Sequence record: MK310184
Origin: Phage NC-G
Length of the DNA: 64,000 bases
Strand: one strand, 5' to 3'
Below the pieces are notes generated by a model. That model saw only the letters and a program-made list of their open reading frames with translations, had not been told where the DNA came from and ran no database searches. Position 1 is the first letter of the stretch, and the number at the start of each line of letters is the position of its first letter. Shown here in pieces: positions 745 through 63,550 of this stretch. A program made the translations under genes and the position numbers.

Positions 745-773
745 ATAGTATCATGTTTAAAGCAGAAGTAAAC
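745..773 (-). promoter_or_regulatory. early sigma70-type promoter upstream of motA
   Basis: minus strand -35 GTTTAC (768-773), 17-bp spacer, extended -10 TGaTACTAT (745-750), upstream A-tract. Confidence 0.6.
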
Positions 774-3563: not shown

Positions 3564-3612
3564 ATCAATTTCCTCAGTAGATTAATGTTTTGTTATCCAG
3601 TCAACGAGAACC

Positions 3613-3641
3613 ATTATAACATGATTCTCGAGGTTGTAAAC
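3613..3641 (-). promoter_or_regulatory. early sigma70-type promoter upstream of ndd
   Basis: -35 GTTTAC (3636-3641), 17-bp spacer, -10 TATAAT (3613-3618), upstream A-tract. Confidence 0.65.
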
Positions 3642-4234: not shown

Positions 4235-4345
4235 TCAGAAGTTAAAGAATACACGTACATGGTCAATCATAAAAACTATTGGGAAAATGCTCAATACAAC
4301 CAATAGCACAAACATGTTCCAAATTGCTTTAAGTAAGTTTTTCAT
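4235..4345 (-). CDS. small hydrophobic peptide (36 aa)
   Basis: first ORF after early promoter; GGAG RBS; MKNLLKAIWNMFVLLVVLSIFPIVFMIDHVRVFFNF. Confidence 0.35.
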   Translation of the reverse strand: MKNLLKAIWNMFVLLVVLSIFPIVFMIDHVRVFFNF

Positions 4346-4371
4346 AATCATCTCCATTAGTTGATAGGTCT

Positions 4372-4400
4372 ATAGTATCATGTCTAATGGAGATGTAAAC
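4372..4400 (-). promoter_or_regulatory. early promoter with RBS-complementary spacer
   Basis: -35 GTTTAC 4395-4400, 17-bp spacer, -10 TACTAT 4372-4377; inverted repeat 4351-4360/4384-4393. Confidence 0.6.
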
Positions 4401-6919: not shown

Positions 6920-9130
6920 TTAAGCCGCTTCCACGGCTTTCATGAATTTAACAATTTGAGCTACAGAAGCCTCGGTAATGGATGTTCCACGACGATACAT
7001 GTAGTCCGAAACTAAATGGTAATCAGATTCAAACTGTACAGTCATTTTATCATTGTTGCTTGAAGCATTATTGGTTAACGTATTAAACGTGGTATTACAG
7101 ATTTTCTTGATAACGGAAAGCTTGTCATCAGTGATATAACCATGGAAATTCATGTAACGGAATATATCATAGAAATTACTCAGACGAGTATATGCTTCAG
7201 TTACCGGCTTGTCACTGAAATACTTGGTCATGAAATTAAGCTGAGGGAACTTAGCAATGATTTCAAGGTAATACCGAGCTCGAGTATTGCTACCAAGGTA
7301 GTCATCAATATCTACCGCATCCAGTGCTTCGGTATAAGCTTCTAATGTAGCTTCCATCAAGCATTCGCACTGGCCTAACTTTTTAATCTTTTTGGCAATC
7401 TGAGGACGGATGATATGGAATTCGGTAATACCTAACAAATTAGCCATACGAGTCATTGTAGTGGTGTTGATGTCAAAGATACCATAAGCTTCGTCCATCC
7501 CCATGATATCAGAACGACTGCCAAACAGAACATAACCTGTAATTTCTTCTGCTTCTGCGGCGGTCAAATACATTGTCTCTGTTTGCCAACGACCATCTTT
7601 AATGAACCAACGATAAGCACTTGGTGTTTTAGGACGAGGTTCTGATGAACGAACAGTGACCGGAATCCATGGCTTAACAATTTTATTCAGTTCAGAGACT
7701 TTATAAAAATGAATTGTATCACCTTTAAAAAGTTCTTTAACCTTTTCAAGCTGCTGCATTTGCAACATTGAATTCGGGTCGACAAAAATAAGGTCAGTTC
7801 CGTATTTAGGAATATTGTTCTCTTTAACAATTTTCTTAGCCGAAGCACTGTTGTCCATTGCCAGAGCCCAAAGTCCTCGAACCAGAGGTACGCGACCCTT
7901 TTCATCGTCATAAACAACATGGATTTCTTTCTTATTAATGCCTAATAAACCACTAAGTCCTGCTACCGAAGAAGTATTACTACTCGGCTTAATTCGTTTC
8001 AAACGTGGGTCCATACAAACTTCGTAAACCACACCTAAATTAATAAGGTCGTTTTGAAGGGTATAACGCTGGTATAATTTCTCGTATGACAATTTTTCTG
8101 TAGTAAACAGGCTAGTTCCACCTTTTTTGGTAAGATAGTCACGAGCACTGTAACCAAGGTTAGAAAGGTCGCGATAAACATGGCGTGGATTATCGGATTC
8201 CACCCATTCTTGGGTATCGTTTTTAAAGACCACTGCATCTAGTGCTTCAATACGAGTTGCAATATTTTCCATTGTGCGTTTATCAAGAGACAGCACTTCA
8301 CGAGACGGAGCAATATCCAGCGAACCCATAGGGAACTTAATATAAACTACATCATGGCGAGTACGCATCCATGTGCCTTTAATATAGGCAGAATCCAATG
8401 GATAGACAATACCACCATAAACTGCATAAAGTCCTGAACGTTCGAAGCTGCCATAATTTGTAGTGGTTACAGGATGGTAATCGTCAAATTCAGGGAAATA
8501 ATCAACTTCAACACCGTCTACATCACCAAGACCAATGAAAGGCCGCATGATATAACGAACTTCAGTTTCAAACTTACGGAAATCTTCTTCATCGACAGGA
8601 ACCGTGATTTCGATACCTGTTTTGTCACCGGGTTGCATCGGTTCAACGAATGTAGGTTTAATCTGCGGGCCATCGCCATCCATATAAGCTACATAACCAC
8701 GAACTTCACCGTTATGCCATGAGGTGATATTAAACGTTTCGGTATAACTGAACGGAGATTTTGAACCAAGGCCAAAGCCACCGATGAAATCGTTAGAAGC
8801 GGTTTTGGATGATGCGAAATAAGAGTTATACAAACCTGTTTCGTTTTCATCACCACGAATTTGGAAATCGCTCATACCCGGCCCGAAGTCACGGCATACA
8901 AAACGAGGGTCCAGTTTACCAGGAACCTGTACTTTCCAACGTTCTTTATTACCATTCAGAATATGGGCATCAATCATATTGGTAATTAGTTCACGTACTA
9001 CAGCACGTACTTTATTACTATAAAGGTCTGATGACAGAATTTTAAAGACCTTAGGCGAGGCCTGGATAGTAAAGCCTGTGGACTTGGCACCATTACCAAT
9101 GATTTGTTCTTTTTCGGTTTCAATAATCAT
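6920..9130 (-). CDS. rIIA: rIIA protein
   Basis: 736 aa; N-terminus (GNGAKS..FTIQASPKVFKILSSDLYSNKVRAVVRELITNMIDAH) matches recalled T4 rIIA. Confidence 0.93.
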   Translation of the reverse strand: MIIETEKEQIIGNGAKSTGFTIQASPKVFKILSSDLYSNKVRAVVRELITNMIDAHILNGNKERWKVQVPGKLDPRFVCRDFGPGMSDFQIRGDENETGLYNSYFASSKTASNDFIGGFGLGSKSPFSYTETFNITSWHNGEVRGYVAYMDGDGPQIKPTFVEPMQPGDKTGIEITVPVDEEDFRKFETEVRYIMRPFIGLGDVDGVEVDYFPEFDDYHPVTTTNYGSFERSGLYAVYGGIVYPLDSAYIKGTWMRTRHDVVYIKFPMGSLDIAPSREVLSLDKRTMENIATRIEALDAVVFKNDTQEWVESDNPRHVYRDLSNLGYSARDYLTKKGGTSLFTTEKLSYEKLYQRYTLQNDLINLGVVYEVCMDPRLKRIKPSSNTSSVAGLSGLLGINKKEIHVVYDDEKGRVPLVRGLWALAMDNSASAKKIVKENNIPKYGTDLIFVDPNSMLQMQQLEKVKELFKGDTIHFYKVSELNKIVKPWIPVTVRSSEPRPKTPSAYRWFIKDGRWQTETMYLTAAEAEEITGYVLFGSRSDIMGMDEAYGIFDINTTTMTRMANLLGITEFHIIRPQIAKKIKKLGQCECLMEATLEAYTEALDAVDIDDYLGSNTRARYYLEIIAKFPQLNFMTKYFSDKPVTEAYTRLSNFYDIFRYMNFHGYITDDKLSVIKKICNTTFNTLTNNASSNNDKMTVQFESDYHLVSDYMYRRGTSITEASVAQIVKFMKAVEAA

Positions 9131-9669: not shown

Positions 9670-9699
9670 ATCGTATCACACTTTTAACCTGTTGTAAAC
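9670..9699 (-). promoter_or_regulatory. possible early promoter
   Basis: -35 GTTTAC 9694-9699, 18-bp spacer, weak -10 TACGAT with upstream TG. Confidence 0.35.
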
Positions 9700-12847: not shown

Positions 12848-12877
12848 TTTATTTTCCTCTCATTTGTTGATAGGGTA

Positions 12878-12907
12878 ATCTTATCACTACCCTATATTGT
12901 TGTACAC
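12878..12907 (-). promoter_or_regulatory. possible early promoter
   Basis: -35-like GTGTAC 12902-12907, 18-bp spacer, -10 TAAGAT 12878-12883, conserved ccctatcaac box. Confidence 0.35.
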
Positions 12908-13424: not shown

Positions 13425-13466
13425 AATTTTTCTCTCTTGGTTAAAGGTTTATTCTCCATGAGAGCC

Positions 13467-13495
13467 ATTATAACATGGCTCTCGATAAAGTAAAC
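13467..13495 (-). promoter_or_regulatory. early promoter
   Basis: -35 GTTTAC 13490-13495, 17-bp spacer, -10 TATAAT 13467-13472 flanked by inverted repeat gagagccat/atggctctc. Confidence 0.6.
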
Positions 13496-14244: not shown

Positions 14245-14750
14245 AATTGTCTCATTTCAATAAAATCTACGAGTTCAGCATGGGATTTGCGGAACATTAC
14301 TTGGTGGTCACCAATGACAACCTCATCTTCAGGTATTTCGTAAACAGCAAGATAGAATCCTTTAGAAGATAATTCTTCTCGCTCTTCATGACTGAACCAG
14401 CGCATCATATCATACTCACTGGCAAAAGCAAAATGATAGAGGTGAACAAACCAACTAGGTATATAGTTATCTACACCATTATAATCAGGGCGACCCCACT
14501 TAGTATTAATTGCTCTATTAGAATTCGCAACCAACAATTTATCTTGGGATGGTACCGGGATATTTTTAGTATTGCTATGATGGTGTCTAAAATCAGGTTT
14601 ATTATAACCCGCTTCTAATAACCATCCTTCACTCCACTCGTCGAATAATCCGCTATATGGTGTTAACTGACGACTCGCCTGTCTGGTGATTGCGATAGCG
14701 TTTCTGTCATCTAAAACACTGAATGATGATTCAACTCTATAAATTTTCAT
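14241..14750 (-). CDS. hypothetical protein (169 aa)
   Basis: track ORF; GAGGAG RBS; first gene after early promoter. Confidence 0.6.
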   Translation of the reverse strand: MKIYRVESSFSVLDDRNAIAITRQASRQLTPYSGLFDEWSEGWLLEAGYNKPDFRHHHSNTKNIPVPSQDKLLVANSNRAINTKWGRPDYNGVDNYIPSWFVHLYHFAFASEYDMMRWFSHEEREELSSKGFYLAVYEIPEDEVVIGDHQVMFRKSHAELVDFIEMRQL

Positions 14751-14776
14751 TTTGTTCTCCTCATGTTGATAGGGCT

Positions 14777-14805
14777 ATAGTATCATGTCATGAGGAGAAG
14801 TAAAC
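14777..14805 (-). promoter_or_regulatory. early promoter with RBS-complementary spacer
   Basis: -35 GTTTAC 14800-14805, 17-bp spacer, -10 TACTAT 14777-14782; inverted repeat ctcctcatg/catgaggag. Confidence 0.6.
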
Positions 14806-18915: not shown

Positions 18916-19484
18916 TAAAAATCCAACATTTTTAAATGAATTGTTTTATACTCGATTTCGTACGGGTCCCTTTTGACGGTTTCGATTGCAACAATCTCAA
19001 ATCGCGATAGACTAGAGACCATGAACTCACATTCGGTTTCAACCATATCATAGAGGTCAATACGGGTTTCATCTATTTCAAGCTCATCCACATTCCCTGC
19101 AAGAACAAGGTCGATAGCATGGTTGTAGTAGTCAAAAATGAAGGGTGCATTCCTGAGACTTAAAATGGTTTTTGTTCCATATTCCCAAGCCCCTGCGAAC
19201 TGTCGAGCCTGGGAGTATTGAGTACTAAAAGAAGTAACTCGACCAGGAGACCATTGACACCCTACTGAAAGGAGCTCTAATTGCTCAAGTTCTCTGGTGG
19301 TAATCCCACGATACAACTCTACCGGAACCGCTGAAGTAACATGCTTGCGAACCAGTTTGTCGAGGTCGTAATGGAAGTTAGGGTCTTTTTTGGCGTCCAG
19401 GCATTTTTCTAAAAGATTCTGTTCATGTTTTGAAAATTTGGAATTGATTCGGTCTTGATAAAGACATTTTTGTTCGATGTTCAT
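18915..19484 (-). CDS. modB: ADP-ribosyltransferase, Mod family
   Basis: 189 aa; R-S-E triad context (LYRG, TSFST, ETECEF); paralog of adjacent gene. Confidence 0.65.
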   Translation of the reverse strand: MNIEQKCLYQDRINSKFSKHEQNLLEKCLDAKKDPNFHYDLDKLVRKHVTSAVPVELYRGITTRELEQLELLSVGCQWSPGRVTSFSTQYSQARQFAGAWEYGTKTILSLRNAPFIFDYYNHAIDLVLAGNVDELEIDETRIDLYDMVETECEFMVSSLSRFEIVAIETVKRDPYEIEYKTIHLKMLDF

Positions 19485-19508
19485 ATGACCTCCAGTGATT
19501 TAGAGGTC

Positions 19509-19537
19509 ATTATAACATGAAGGGAGGAGGTGTAAAC
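19509..19537 (-). promoter_or_regulatory. early promoter embedded in RBS-sequestering hairpin
   Basis: -35 GTTTAC 19532-19537, 17-bp spacer, -10 TATAAT 19509-19514; 8-bp inverted repeat atgacctc/gaggtcat spans RBS and ATG. Confidence 0.6.
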
Positions 19538-24915: not shown

Positions 24916-24943
24916 TTTTAACTCCTCGTTAGTTGATAGGTCT

Positions 24944-24974
24944 ATAGTATCATTTACCATAGACCGTTGTAAAC
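24944..24974 (-). promoter_or_regulatory. possible early promoter (long spacer)
   Basis: -35 GTTTAC 24969-24974, extended -10 TGaTACTAT 24944-24949, but 19-bp spacer. Confidence 0.4.
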
Positions 24975-47461: not shown

Positions 47462-47640
47462 GATTTAATTTCCTTTGCTACTGAACAAAACACAGAACGG
47501 TCACACACCATAAGTGGAGCTTCAGGCCGGCTCAAAGGTTGATACCATACATCAAGAACGGTCACCTTAGTTACCTGGACAGGGTAGCCATTTACTGAAT
47601 AATACTGGTCAACTTTAATTTCTTTATCTTGGATAGTCAT
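47458..47640 (-). CDS. hypothetical protein (60 aa)
   Basis: track ORF; GAGGAG RBS; first gene after early promoter. Confidence 0.45.
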   Translation of the reverse strand: MTIQDKEIKVDQYYSVNGYPVQVTKVTVLDVWYQPLSRPEAPLMVCDRSVFCSVAKEIKS

Positions 47641-47669
47641 AATGTTCTCCTCATGTGTTGATAGGATAG

Positions 47670-47698
47670 ACTATACCACGTGAGGAGAGGAAGTAAAC
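47670..47698 (-). promoter_or_regulatory. early promoter with RBS-complementary spacer
   Basis: -35 GTTTAC 47693-47698, 17-bp spacer, -10 TATAGT 47670-47675; inverted repeat ctcctcacgtg/cacatgaggag. Confidence 0.6.
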
Positions 47699-48612: not shown

Positions 48613-49086
48613 TCATTTAAGCGATTTCCTCAGTTGTTTTTTAAATGAATCAACCATTTGTTTCTTTGTGTCAGATTCATTATAAGTCATTCCGTGTGAA
48701 AGCATTTCAGCAATCATTTCTTCCTTACCTAATCTACTGAACTCTTTGGTTTTATCAGGAACGAAATTAGGATGGATATTGTTTTCGGTATAATCAGCTT
48801 TTAGATAGACCAGCAAATTCTCTAACCATTCGAGGTAGTCAACGTTTTGACCTTTAAGACCAGAACGGTTGAACTTATGCTTCATTTGTCCTTCTGCAGC
48901 ATTGCACAGGTTACATAGTAAACCACGAACCTTACCGGCTTTTGGCCCGTTCAATTCATGGTCGTGGTCAAGGTGGTTACTTTGAACATCAGGGTTTAAT
49001 TCACGTTTACAAATCAAACACTTACCATGTTGTGCATCATAAAGTTTTTGTTTTTCTTCTTTGTATAGTTTGCCAGTCAACAACAT
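48613..49086 (-). CDS. 49: endonuclease VII (Holliday junction resolvase) gp49
   Basis: 157 aa; near-identical blocks to recalled T4 endo VII (HLDHDHELNGPKAGKVRGLLCNLCNAAEGQ). Confidence 0.92.
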   Translation of the reverse strand: MLLTGKLYKEEKQKLYDAQHGKCLICKRELNPDVQSNHLDHDHELNGPKAGKVRGLLCNLCNAAEGQMKHKFNRSGLKGQNVDYLEWLENLLVYLKADYTENNIHPNFVPDKTKEFSRLGKEEMIAEMLSHGMTYNESDTKKQMVDSFKKQLRKSLK

Positions 49087-49297
49087 AATAAACCCTTACC
49101 ATTATTAGATAAGGGTATTTATTAAACATTATAAAATGAGCGATGCAACCGTTTAAATTGACGAATCATCTTTTTGGTAGGACGGGTGTATAATCCTACA
49201 CAGGTGGCCATAAACCGGTCGGTAGGACTTCCTTTGATAAGAAGTTTCCAGACCTTGTCACCATTTAACTTTTCAGTATAGACTAATTTAGTTTTCA

Positions 49298-53858: not shown

Positions 53859-54383
53859 TTATGCGAGAACCGTCTTTAAACGCTCTTCAAATTTCTGAAG
53901 CAGAGCTTGGCGTTCAGCTCGTTGTGATTTGTACTGCTCGATACGACCTGAAGTGAGGGCGTATTGTTCGTTTACTGATTCCCGCATGAATTCAGGAATC
54001 TCTTTACAAGCTTTGATTTCATCAAACTTATCAATAACCGCTTGTTCCTCGGCAATCAGATTATCGAAATAAGCGATATCAGATTTAACATTTGCCAGGT
54101 CGGATTCAGTAGGCATTAAACGTTTGTTACGTTCAGCTTGATAAGCTTGATTGGTTTCACGACTCCAGTGAAGAGTACGTTTTTTGTTAGTGTTTTTATA
54201 GAGCTCTACAATACCAACTGAATCGATGATAACAATCCAGTTCCAACGGCTTTTGTAAATCTCTCCTCCAGATACGGTAATCTCATTACCACAAGCAACG
54301 TCATTAAAGAACTTGCTTTGTTTTTCAGATTTGAAATTACCGTTATTAAAATTAATCAGTGAAAAAATATCTTTAGCATTCAT
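53859..54383 (-). CDS. hypothetical protein (174 aa)
   Basis: track ORF; GGAGG RBS; first gene after early promoter. Confidence 0.6.
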   Translation of the reverse strand: MNAKDIFSLINFNNGNFKSEKQSKFFNDVACGNEITVSGGEIYKSRWNWIVIIDSVGIVELYKNTNKKRTLHWSRETNQAYQAERNKRLMPTESDLANVKSDIAYFDNLIAEEQAVIDKFDEIKACKEIPEFMRESVNEQYALTSGRIEQYKSQRAERQALLQKFEERLKTVLA

Positions 54384-54409
54384 GATAACCTCCAGTAGTT
54401 GATAGGTCT

Positions 54410-54438
54410 ATAGTATCATTTCTACTGGAGATGTAAAC
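54410..54438 (-). promoter_or_regulatory. early promoter with RBS-complementary spacer
   Basis: -35 GTTTAC 54433-54438, 17-bp spacer, -10 TACTAT 54410-54415; inverted repeat ctccagta/tactggag. Confidence 0.6.
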
Positions 54439-54440
54439 AA

Positions 54441-54782
54441 CTAATAGAAACTTTTTTCACCTGCTTGTCCACTAAACCACGCTGATTGGGTATTAGGTTT
54501 CCGTTGATGTTCAATACGAATGCGATATTCATTCCTGATGGCGCAGAGTTCACCTCGGAAGTCGCCTGCCAACTTTACCTGCTTACGGTCTAGATTTATT
54601 AAGGCCTGGGTCTTCGCGGCCAAGAGCAGTCTCTTGTAGTCTCCTTCTTCACAATCGGTTTTATAAACTCTATTAGTATATCCGTCGATAACTTCTTTAT
54701 CATAGTCCTCGACGGACTGTTTCATGGCATCACGATGGGCCAAACCTGCTTTATAAAGATTGTAAATAAATTGTTCAAACAT
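54441..54782 (-). CDS. hypothetical protein (113 aa)
   Basis: track ORF. Confidence 0.5.
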   Translation of the reverse strand: MFEQFIYNLYKAGLAHRDAMKQSVEDYDKEVIDGYTNRVYKTDCEEGDYKRLLLAAKTQALINLDRKQVKLAGDFRGELCAIRNEYRIRIEHQRKPNTQSAWFSGQAGEKSFY

Positions 54783-58882: not shown

Positions 58883-58911
58883 TAGTATCATGTTCCTAGA
58901 GGATGTAAACA
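58883..58911 (-). promoter_or_regulatory. early promoter
   Basis: -35 GTTTAC 58906-58911, 17-bp spacer, -10 TACTAT 58883-58888, conserved agacctatcaac box. Confidence 0.6.
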
Positions 58912-61758: not shown

Positions 61759-62322
61759 TTAATATACCGCCTCAAACATCTTTTTAGATTTTAGGTAATT
61801 GGCCTTTTCTAGAACCTCAGAAGCATATTTACTGCCTGCTTTGACATTCCAGCCCGCATTATAAGAAGCAATCGCTTTTCTCAGGTCACCTTTGTGAACA
61901 TCAATCCAATAAGACAGTTCAATGTAGGCCCAAGAGGCACTGTTCTGTCGTTTTTGGACCATACGAATTATTTCTTTGTCTGACATCTTCCAACCCACCT
62001 GTTGAACACGACTTCTTAACGTAGGCAAGTAATTTTGGAACATGCCATAAGCATGGTGCTTATCTTTATTTAAACCTTGATTAATTCCGGCGGATGATTC
62101 CTGCCATAGTAATCCGGCCATAATATATCCTAATCCTTTTTGATTAGGGTTTTCTTTGAACTTTCCCGACTTTTGGTATTGTTCACCGAAAGCATACGCA
62201 TAATGTAAATTATCGAGCTGGGTTTCTGTAAATACGGGTTCTGCTGCACTTACAGAAAACGAACCACACATAATAGCCGCTATTAAAGAATATTTAAGTT
62301 TTTTTAGAAAAATCATAATCAA
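61759..62322 (-). CDS. lytic transglycosylase (SLT domain) with signal peptide
   Basis: 187 aa; SLT motifs (LLWQESS, YGMFQ, SYNAG). Confidence 0.6.
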   Translation of the reverse strand: MIMIFLKKLKYSLIAAIMCGSFSVSAAEPVFTETQLDNLHYAYAFGEQYQKSGKFKENPNQKGLGYIMAGLLWQESSAGINQGLNKDKHHAYGMFQNYLPTLRSRVQQVGWKMSDKEIIRMVQKRQNSASWAYIELSYWIDVHKGDLRKAIASYNAGWNVKAGSKYASEVLEKANYLKSKKMFEAVY

Positions 62323-63035: not shown

Positions 63036-63494
63036 TCACAAGTAAATTACTTTCGTGCTGGTTTTACCTTCTAAACGTTTAGAGTTAACAAATGCCATAC
63101 GGCATTTAAGGGAATATCCTTTATCAGGGTGTTTACGGTCTACTGTCATACCTAACCATAAGGTTTTATCGGTAATCTCAAGACGCAGTGGGCGATACAC
63201 TTTACCTGGGACAATTTCAGATTCTACATCAGGCAGAGGTTCCTGGATTAAAAATTCATGGATTTCTTTAACATGGTTATGGAGTTGCTTGAATAAAGCA
63301 AAAACGTATTTTTCGTCAATTTCACGTTGGATAGCACGGTCCAATAGGTGATTAGAGTACTTAATAAAGAAAGCTGGGACTCCACTCTTAATGGCGGCTT
63401 TTTTGATGGATGTATTCAGTTCACGAAATTCGGTTTCGAACTGACGACGTAATTTGTTGCGGCGGATGAATACTTCTGAATTAATTTCTGACAT
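63036..63494 (-). CDS. regB: RegB site-specific endoribonuclease
   Basis: 152 aa; blocks matching recalled T4 RegB (EVFIRRNKLRR.FE.EFR, HLLDRAIQREIDE.YVF, RLEITD..LWLG). Confidence 0.85.
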   Translation of the reverse strand: MSEINSEVFIRRNKLRRQFETEFRELNTSIKKAAIKSGVPAFFIKYSNHLLDRAIQREIDEKYVFALFKQLHNHVKEIHEFLIQEPLPDVESEIVPGKVYRPLRLEITDKTLWLGMTVDRKHPDKGYSLKCRMAFVNSKRLEGKTSTKVIYL

Positions 63495-63521
63495 TTTGTT
63501 TCTCCTGTAGTTGATAGGTTT

Positions 63522-63550
63522 ATAGTATCACTTCTACAGGAGATGTAAAC
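63522..63550 (-). promoter_or_regulatory. early promoter for regB with RBS-complementary spacer
   Basis: -35 GTTTAC 63545-63550, 17-bp spacer, -10 TACTAT 63522-63527; inverted repeat ctcctgtag/ctacaggag. Confidence 0.6.

Follow-up and report, generated by a model that had tools for sequence, protein, structure and literature searches.

Transcript-specific occlusion of the ribosome-binding site (RBS) has been established experimentally for the T4 genes e, soc, 49 and I-TevI, in each case at a late promoter, and I-TevII, I-TevIII, segB and Aeh1 mobE are listed as further cases (PMC3014915 sect. 29; PMC2988022 sect. 12). The early promoters of T4 are known for a GTTTAC -35 element, a TGn motif, conserved positions at the start site and their location on the early strand (PMC2988021 sect. 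6; PMC1524935 sect. 10). Conserved stem-loops at early promoters, termed PeSLs, have been described in RB49/phi1, T4/PST and KVP40/nt-1 (PMC2839356 sect. 14; PMC4122927). None of their five stem-loop positions extends as far as the transcription start (PMC2839356 sect. 14), and the T4/PST PeSL is assigned to the region on the 5' side of the promoter (PMC4122927 fig. 3 legend). One PeSL reduced the expression of a downstream lacZ gene as much as the strong rrnB T1 terminator did, mini-circles resulting from recombination between PeSL cassettes were detected, and PeSLs were interpreted as terminators and recombination sites (PMC2839356; PMC4122927); the words ribosome and translation are absent from the main text of both papers. 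RBS occlusion at early promoters is absent from the 2010 T4 reviews and the PeSL papers; an older mention at single T4 genes is possible.

We analysed a stretch of 64,000 nt from Phage NC-G (MK310184), referred to as the window, in which a promoter at 54384-54438 had been flagged. The 5-kb stretch around the flagged site is 87-90% identical to T4-like coliphages of the JS98/IME08/VR5 type (genus Dhakavirus), and the early region of T4 and the window have the same gene order. The first-pass annotation had described a family of minus-strand early promoters, and this family was borne out: the pattern GTTTAC-N16-19-TANNAT has 22 matches in the window compared to 1.16 expected, with 22 of 22 on the minus strand, and widening it to TAnnnT and GTGTAC resulted in 24 promoters with a gene downstream. 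The layout is that of T4, with a GTTTAC -35 element, a spacer of approximately 17 nt (17-18), a TGn-extended -10 element and TAnnnT; promoters of the form GTTTAC-N17-TGnTACTAT belong to the sigma-70 early type and not to the gp55 late type. Genes identified below them are regB, nrdC.8, motB.2, 55.6 and a modB-like gene. A conserved box, AGACCTATCAAC, has 14 matches with at most two mismatches (13 on the minus strand; 5.2 expected). Because T4, in which the same early-promoter pattern was found, carries the related start-site box ACAACTATCAAC or TACCCTATCAAC, we regard the box as an ancestral feature. A scan of IMG/VR with GTTTAC-N14-TGNTACTAT was left out of the results, the listed matches being mostly unrelated contigs.

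The recurrent spacer allele nnTGCTTTAAACATGA (window 745-773 and relatives) holds the MotA-box core TGCTTTA at a distance of 7 nt from the -10 element, which is too near for a canonical middle promoter. The window segment 46504-46572 (minus strand) and T4 7141-7215 contain a nearly identical promoter, GTTTAC-aaactcttgggaYcagag-TATAAT-ggtcc, which drives motB in T4 and a 109-aa ORF in the gene 55 region of the window phage, and which is followed in both phages by a late-promoter-like TATAAA on its 3' side. This sequence match suggests a mobile promoter cassette.

At the flagged site, all elements of which lie on the minus strand, the -35 hexamer GTTTAC (54433..54438) matches the T4 early -35 element (PMC1524935 sect. 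10). The 17-nt spacer contains the anti-Shine-Dalgarno-like 5' arm of a hairpin, ATCTCCAGTAG (54422..54432; 9 Watson-Crick pairs), and is followed by the extended -10 element TGATACTAT (TGn plus TACTAT; 54410..54418), by the box AGACCTATCAAC (54398..54409), which comprises the discriminator and the predicted start site (~54403), and by the 3' arm CTACTGGAGGT (54388..54398), which includes the Shine-Dalgarno (SD) sequence GGAGG (54393-54389). The spacer segment CTCCAGTAG (54430-54422) is the exact reverse complement of CTACTGGAG (54398-54390), the SD region of an nrdC.8 homologue with its ATG at 54383 (53859..54383; 174 aa, 70% identity to T4 NrdC.8), and adding one G.U and one A-U pair extends the helix from 9 to 11 bp. 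TGATA of the -10 element and TATCA (54404-54400) form the two sides of a 5-bp inner stem, the pairs of which are invariant or nearly so and thus uninformative. An upstream ORF of 113 aa (54441..54782) ends with a TAG stop 2 nt before the -35 element, and no terminator was found between this ORF and the promoter. By prediction, the SD is open with a probability of 0.00 in read-through RNA versus 0.22 in promoter-initiated RNA, and the promoter-initiated leader alone folds at -0.6 kcal/mol.

An SD-pairing 5' arm upstream of the predicted start is present at 6 of the 24 promoters, designated here by the position of their GTTTAC: 63550, 54438, 47698, 19537, 14805 and 4400, all on the minus strand. 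In the regB cassette (63494..63550), TCTCCTGTAG (63543-63534) pairs with CTACAGGAGA (63510-63501); in the cassette of the gp55.6 homologue (47640..47698), TCTCCTCACGTG (47688-47677) pairs with CACATGAGGAGA (47657-47646) with one C.A mismatch; in that of the motB.2 homologue (14750..14805), TTCTCCTCATG (14799-14789) pairs with CATGAGGAGAA (14765-14755); and in the cassette of a 36-aa hydrophobic ORF (4345..4400), CATCTCCATTAG (4395-4384) pairs with CTAATGGAGATG (4360-4349). At the promoter of the ModB-like gene (19484..19537), the 5' arm ATGACCTC overlaps the -10 end and the discriminator and pairs with GAGGTCAT, which extends from the SD to the start codon; ACCTCC in the spacer is an alternative partner. 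The longest perfect helix between a spacer and its own leader is 12 bp at 4400, 11 bp at 14805, 10 bp at 63550, 9 bp at 54438, 8 bp at 47698 (8+3) and 6 bp at both 19537 and 25990, and it does not exceed 5 bp at any remaining promoter in the window; 25990 and 58910 are degenerate versions of the SD-pairing cassette. GGAG is present in five of the six 3' arms. The six sites given as examples in the first-pass annotation thus all hold, including 19537 with its ATGACCTC/GAGGTCAT pairing. Its statement that the spacer is an inverted repeat of the SD at many promoters is correct for these six but not for most of the family, and with only about a quarter of the promoters involved (6/24), the proposed generalization to early operons does not stand.

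A second class of hairpin, in which the spacer pairs with the -10 end and the discriminator over 7-10 bp and the SD is left free, occurs at 4 of the 24 promoters, all on the minus strand: 24974 (24939-24974), 13495 (13460-13495), 12907 (12870-12907) and 3641 (3605-3641). At 13495, for example, the spacer segment GAGAGCCAT pairs with ATGGCTCTC at the -10/discriminator. The predicted probability of an unpaired SD at the second-class promoters in the window is 0.45 in both RNA forms. In T4, examples of this class reach 14 bp (ipII, the mobD.2a region, ipI and dmd), and many T4 promoters have a hairpin whose 5' arm is in the same place as in the SD class but whose stem leaves the SD free. To compare hairpin positions, we surveyed 182 distinct promoters from the window, two close relatives, seven IMG/VR genomes and T4. 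The 50 distinct helices in this survey have strictly two 3'-arm positions with none in between: the 3' arm either ends 1-7 nt before the ATG (SD class) or starts -4 to +2 from the -10 end (second class). Because the second class leaves the RBS untouched, occlusion cannot explain every promoter-embedded hairpin, which points to a further role of these elements that does not involve the RBS, such as attenuation or recombination of the PeSL type.

Intrinsic terminators with a GC stem and a T-run are located directly upstream of the promoters 58910, 55836, 25990, 21396, 9699 and 773; five of them were scored by the scan and the one at 9699, with a T-run of 4 nt, was recognized by eye. Hairpins with a score of at least 7 are absent from these six promoters. 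Conversely, no intrinsic terminator was found upstream of the nine hairpin promoters in the window (0/9), compared to 5 of the 15 other promoters.

Chance pairing was rejected on the basis of shuffles and permutations. A helix of at least 8 bp is formed by 5 of 23 spacers with their own leader compared to 2.6% of the pairings between a spacer and another leader, and hairpins of either class are present at 9 of 24 promoters in the window and 10 of 25 in T4 versus 6-8% of cross pairs; for the window (9/24 vs 8%), the permutation p-value is about 1e-4. The minimum free energy of the read-through RNAs is -19 to -21 kcal/mol (z-scores between -2.7 and -6.3), and their predicted fold consists of an outer stem (spacer and SD), the 5-bp inner stem (TGATA and TATCA) and a 9-nt loop. 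In this form, the predicted probability of an unpaired SD core is 0.00 at all six sites. In promoter-initiated RNA, the mean is 0.43 for the five sites with the arm in the spacer and 0.48 at 19537; two promoter-initiated leaders, that of 63550 (0.10) and that of T4 regB (0.18), are themselves partly closed by prediction. The folding check suggested in the first-pass annotation hence comes out as anticipated in these models, which bury the SD in read-through RNA (0.00) and leave it mostly accessible in RNA started at the promoter (about 0.4). Complete predicted occlusion was found for 5 of 21 promoter-preceded genes versus 4 of 72 other genes (Fisher p = 0.025). A fully paired SD is also predicted, within a context of -120 to +40, for the minus-strand ATGs at 62316, 42390 and 54782, which are without a recognizable early promoter.

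We propose with a probability of roughly 0.6 that early promoters with an embedded SD-occluding hairpin restrict translation of the first gene to RNA from its own promoter. The unit would be a composite cassette of -35 element, spacer, extended -10 element, conserved start-site box and SD, with the 5' arm placed upstream of the start site, usually at spacer positions 1-12 and once in the -10/discriminator. Because the arm lies upstream of the sigma-70 start, promoter-initiated RNA would be without it and its SD would be free. RNA from an upstream promoter would contain both arms, and a hairpin of about -20 kcal/mol would bury the SD. Such read-through is expected because only 1-4 nt separate the end of the upstream ORF from the -35 element, as observed at the four of six SD-pairing sites with a placeable ORF, and because there is no terminator at the six sites; at 19537, the upstream stop is at position -1 relative to the -35 element. 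RegB, NrdC.8, MotB.2, gp55.6, the ModB-like protein and the small membrane peptide, as well as DenV in relatives, would thus be translated only from their own immediate-early promoters, and once such a promoter is shut off, read-through or middle-mode RNA over the gene would stay silent. Sequences, predicted folds and conservation with compensatory change constitute the directly computed part of this case; we infer the start sites from promoter geometry, and we likewise infer read-through transcripts and the effect on translation. The earlier proposal that promoter RNA is free and read-through RNA is buried is accordingly upheld as far as the arm upstream of the start and the predicted 0.00 versus 0.43 are concerned, and its translational part is an expectation.

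Covariation was seen in both classes. Among the JS98-type cassettes in register, matched changes occur at two arm positions (TG/CA, AG/CT, AT/AT) and at three arm positions (GTA/TAC, CAT/ATG, CTA/TAG). In a gapless alignment of all 58 in-register JS98-type cassettes, hairpin-less ones included, 74.8% of the cells are paired versus 68.9 +/- 0.8 in shuffles (0/500), the covariation score is 0.208 versus 0.135 in shuffles (0/500), and sliding the partner leaves 31-45% of the cells paired. In the second class, changes in the spacer are matched by changes in the start-site box when relatives are compared, with arm pairs such as AGACCT/AGGTCT, AGCCTT/AAGGCT, TACCCTAT/ATAGGGTA and AGTCCTATC/GATAGGACT.

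The orthologous promoters of regB, denV, nrdC.8, modB and motB.2 retain the occlusion while their sequences and the place of the 5' arm vary. For regB, promoters from 39 IMG/VR contigs were collapsed into 19 sequence types for folding and 18 types for helix comparison. Occlusion is kept in 13 of the 19 types with widely differing arms, for example, ATCTCCTTTTAGT/ACTAAAAGGAGAT, TTTCTCCTCTTTATG/CATAAAGAGGAGAAA, ATCCTCATTTG/CAAATGAGGAT and TTCTCCTCTAGTTG/CAACTAGAGGAGAA, and the median predicted probability of an unpaired SD is 0.001 in read-through versus 0.53 in promoter-initiated RNA. RNAalifold predicted no structure for 18 regB promoter regions aligned with MAFFT. Because the arms shift register between lineages, column-based covariation fails at this locus, and we therefore compared each promoter's own pairing with pairings to other promoters in an alignment-free manner: the mean self helix is 10.2 bp versus 7.0 bp for cross pairs (18 types; permutation p <= 5e-5). 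For denV, the SD is predicted to be occluded solely in read-through RNA in 18 of 25 promoter types, with the 5' arm located in the spacer or in the -10/discriminator depending on the lineage; the exceptions are mostly GTTGAC-type promoters from contigs of about 345-380 kb. As a baseline, 16-29% of all promoters in four genomes are occluded; these were used instead of the control gene nrdC.4, which gave 8 loci. Because the 5' arm moves between lineages and the SD stays its partner, we regard SD occlusion as the feature under selection, and the regB and denV orthologues are the strongest sequence evidence that points to selection.

The occlusion is not a speciality of the window phage: about a quarter of the early promoters of T4 are likewise predicted to have it. 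In T4, TTTCCTCTTGAC pairs with GTTAAGAGGAGA at regB (12 bp including two G.U pairs) and GTTCCTCTGTGG pairs with CTACGGAGGAAC at nrdC.8, where two G.U pairs are needed for 12 bp; the T4 modB promoter has an occlusion of the same kind as the ModB-like promoter 19537. The SDs of T4 regB, nrdC.8, modB and denV are all predicted to be occluded in read-through RNA. Judged by these comparisons, in which T4 shares the occlusion with different sequences, the predicted SD occlusion is an ancestral feature that is conserved across T-even-type phages. The denV cassette, which is identical in T4 and the JS98-type phage, was discounted as independent support: DenV is 97% identical between T4 (L035 24939-25355) and VR5 (L002 33196-33612), compared to 58% for RegB and 70% for NrdC.8 between the window phage and T4. 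The sequence similarity rather indicates that denV, promoter included, was recently exchanged by horizontal transfer between the Tequatrovirus and Dhakavirus lineages.

Pairing is not always maintained, because the arms of one promoter are mismatched and those of another are truncated. The nrdC.8 promoter of the JS98-type genome L032 (IMGVR_UViG_641509422) combines a 4400-type 5' arm, ATCTCCATTAG, with an nrdC.8-type 3' arm, CTACTGGAGG, leaving one T.C mismatch, and from its sequence looks like the product of a crossover inside the cassette; in the 25990-type promoter, the 5' arm is kept and the 3' arm is truncated in five orthologues. The matching arms of paralogous copies are in part due to inheritance of the cassette as a unit.

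These cases bear on the possibility that the cassettes are PeSL-type elements, in which the hairpin would primarily attenuate or terminate transcripts from upstream, or would be a hot spot for recombination at which modules of promoter and gene are shuffled, and the overlap with the SD would be only a positional variant that serves no purpose in translation. The published rrnB T1-like lacZ reduction and the mini-circles (PMC2839356 sect. 14; PMC4122927) are in line with this idea, as are the second class, which fits PeSL sub-classes by pairing the spacer with the -10/discriminator, the swapping of spacer alleles among orthologous promoters, the recombinant appearance of L032, the recurrence of the T4 motB cassette at another gene in the window, and the location of hairpin promoters at sites without upstream terminators. 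However, the 3' arms of neither class are followed by a U-tract, the sequences reading aacaaaATG, ttatcATG or gttatcATG, tgattATG and atcaac, and the window phage uses ordinary GC-stem and T-run terminators elsewhere. The strictly bimodal 3'-arm position, at the SD or the -10 element and never between, also argues against a mere positional variant, as does the finding that, in most lineages, pairing at regB and denV is with the SD even where the 5' arm has moved from the spacer to the discriminator. We consider this explanation unlikely for the SD-pairing hairpins, and judging from the sequences that follow the arms, we reject a function as Rho-independent terminators, which have a GC-rich stem with a U-run directly behind it.

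The hairpin might alternatively serve mainly to hide an internal GGAG from RegB, which would keep polycistronic RNA intact, and the exposed GGAG of the short promoter-proximal RNA would be cut. The synthesis of RegB is tightly limited, and the enzyme is inhibited by RNA structure and cannot cut a structured GGAG (PMC3014915 sects. 8, 11). A paired GGAG in the cassettes would probably resist RegB cleavage, and the occurrence of regB in the window and its relatives, together with GGAG in five of six 3' arms, would suit such shielding. Durand et al. 2006 (PMC1702504), however, swapped sequences between motB and T4 denV RNA, the latter serving as the poorly cleaved one, and attributed the resistance of unstructured GGAG RNAs to a missing A-rich 3' element. 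The hairpin is nevertheless retained at denV in most lineages, and in some cases, such as the contig L057, the arm is complementary to an SD of the GAGG/AGGA type in which GGAG is absent. Shielding as the main function is in our opinion quite improbable, but it is compatible with translational occlusion and hard to tell apart from it, and RegB biology also fits the reading that the hairpin controls access to the SD.

Translational coupling, in which translation of read-through RNA would need the ribosomes that finish the upstream ORF to melt the stem, is suggested by the upstream stop 1-4 nt before the -35 element at the four placeable SD-pairing sites and by the SD itself being the stem base. 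Unwinding of mRNA by the ribosomal helicase reaches no further than about +11 from the P site, i.e., ~5 nt past a stop codon in the A site. Because the 5' arm starts 9-12 nt past the stop codon, a terminating ribosome should stop short of the stem, and coupling was judged very unlikely. A DNA-level element, in which the inverted repeat would act as a cruciform, as a modulator of promoter melting or as a target for a structure-specific protein or recombination nuclease, is likewise hardly probable. In its favour, the -10 element is always in the loop or stem end, G.U is not clearly favoured over A.C within the helices (5 vs 3, counts that do not separate RNA from DNA structure) and the PeSL authors speculated on a DNA-binding recombination protein (PMC2839356, discussion). 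Against it, arm sequences vary freely, unlike what a protein with a specific recognition sequence would require, cruciforms extrude poorly with loops of about 22-25 nt, T4 regB and nrdC.8 each need their two G.U pairs for 12 bp, and such an element gives no reason for the SD to be the 3' arm in most regB and denV lineages.

Beyond translation from the own promoter alone, it is conceivable, though on balance doubtful, that the embedded hairpins of T-even phages form a general transcript-origin code, with one class silencing the SD and another setting the stability or processing of read-through RNA. If true, ~40% of early promoters would give rise to RNA that is structurally unlike read-through RNA. 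The dose-sensitive proteins RegB, ModB and DenV would be made only in the immediate-early burst. Such a code would explain part of the distinction between immediate-early and delayed-early genes and, in part, the inactivation by RegB of early transcripts but not of middle ones from the same genes. Temporal gene control in virulent phages is studied with T4 as the reference, and the 2010 review explains the end of early protein synthesis only in part, through promoter shut-off by an unknown mechanism together with RegB. If, as proposed above, only RNA from the own promoter can be translated, the end of early-promoter activity alone would stop the synthesis of RegB, ModB, DenV and similar proteins despite polymerase crossing the genes from upstream. 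The prediction is directly testable in T4 at regB, nrdC.8, modB and denV with existing genetics. When T4-like therapeutic phages are annotated or engineered, a gene relocated without its promoter spacer, or newly read through from another promoter, could be silenced or unsilenced. In addition, one class of PeSLs, so far discussed only as terminators and recombination sites, would gain a functional reading.

Compared with the described systems, the promoters in the window share with the T4 early promoters the GTTTAC -35 element, the 17-18 nt spacer, the TGn motif, start-site conservation and exclusive location on the early strand, but the published consensus treats the spacer as part of the promoter only, without complementarity to the SD. 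As at T4 e, soc, 49 and I-TevI, the SD/AUG would be hidden in RNA from a distant promoter, and the promoter lies inside the hairpin region. The parallel with e, soc and I-TevI drawn in the first-pass annotation therefore stands with regard to the predicted SD pairing and the promoter position but not the promoter type: the internal promoter is late in T4 (gp55, TATAAATA) and sigma-70 early in the window. The predicted consequence is also reversed, because the T4 late cases delay translation until late, whereas the cassettes in the window would confine it to the immediate-early burst. The window has the known T4 gene 49 arrangement as well: at the gene 49 (endonuclease VII) homologue (49086-49150, minus strand; ATG at 49086), the SD and start are located in a hairpin ACCCTTA...TAAGGGT with a late-promoter-like TAATAAATA just upstream.

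The repeated cassette of upstream stop, strong sigma-70-like promoter, stem-loop, SD and start codon is shared with PeSLs, as is the swapping of cassettes between loci and between phages, for which the window-type cassettes provide examples in orthologous promoters with differing spacer alleles, L032, the motB cassette and denV. The second hairpin class fits the PeSL sub-classes with a stem-loop between the -35 and -10 elements or over the -10 element, and the terminator-promoter arrangement of T4/PST is found at 58910, 55836, 25990, 21396, 9699 and 773. In contrast to PeSLs, the six SD-pairing hairpins in the window have 3' arms without a U-tract, and these arms are the SD itself, past the described positions. 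Relative to the 2010 reviews and the PeSL papers, the SD-pairing hairpin of early promoters occupies a position absent from these descriptions, and its predicted effect differs from theirs.
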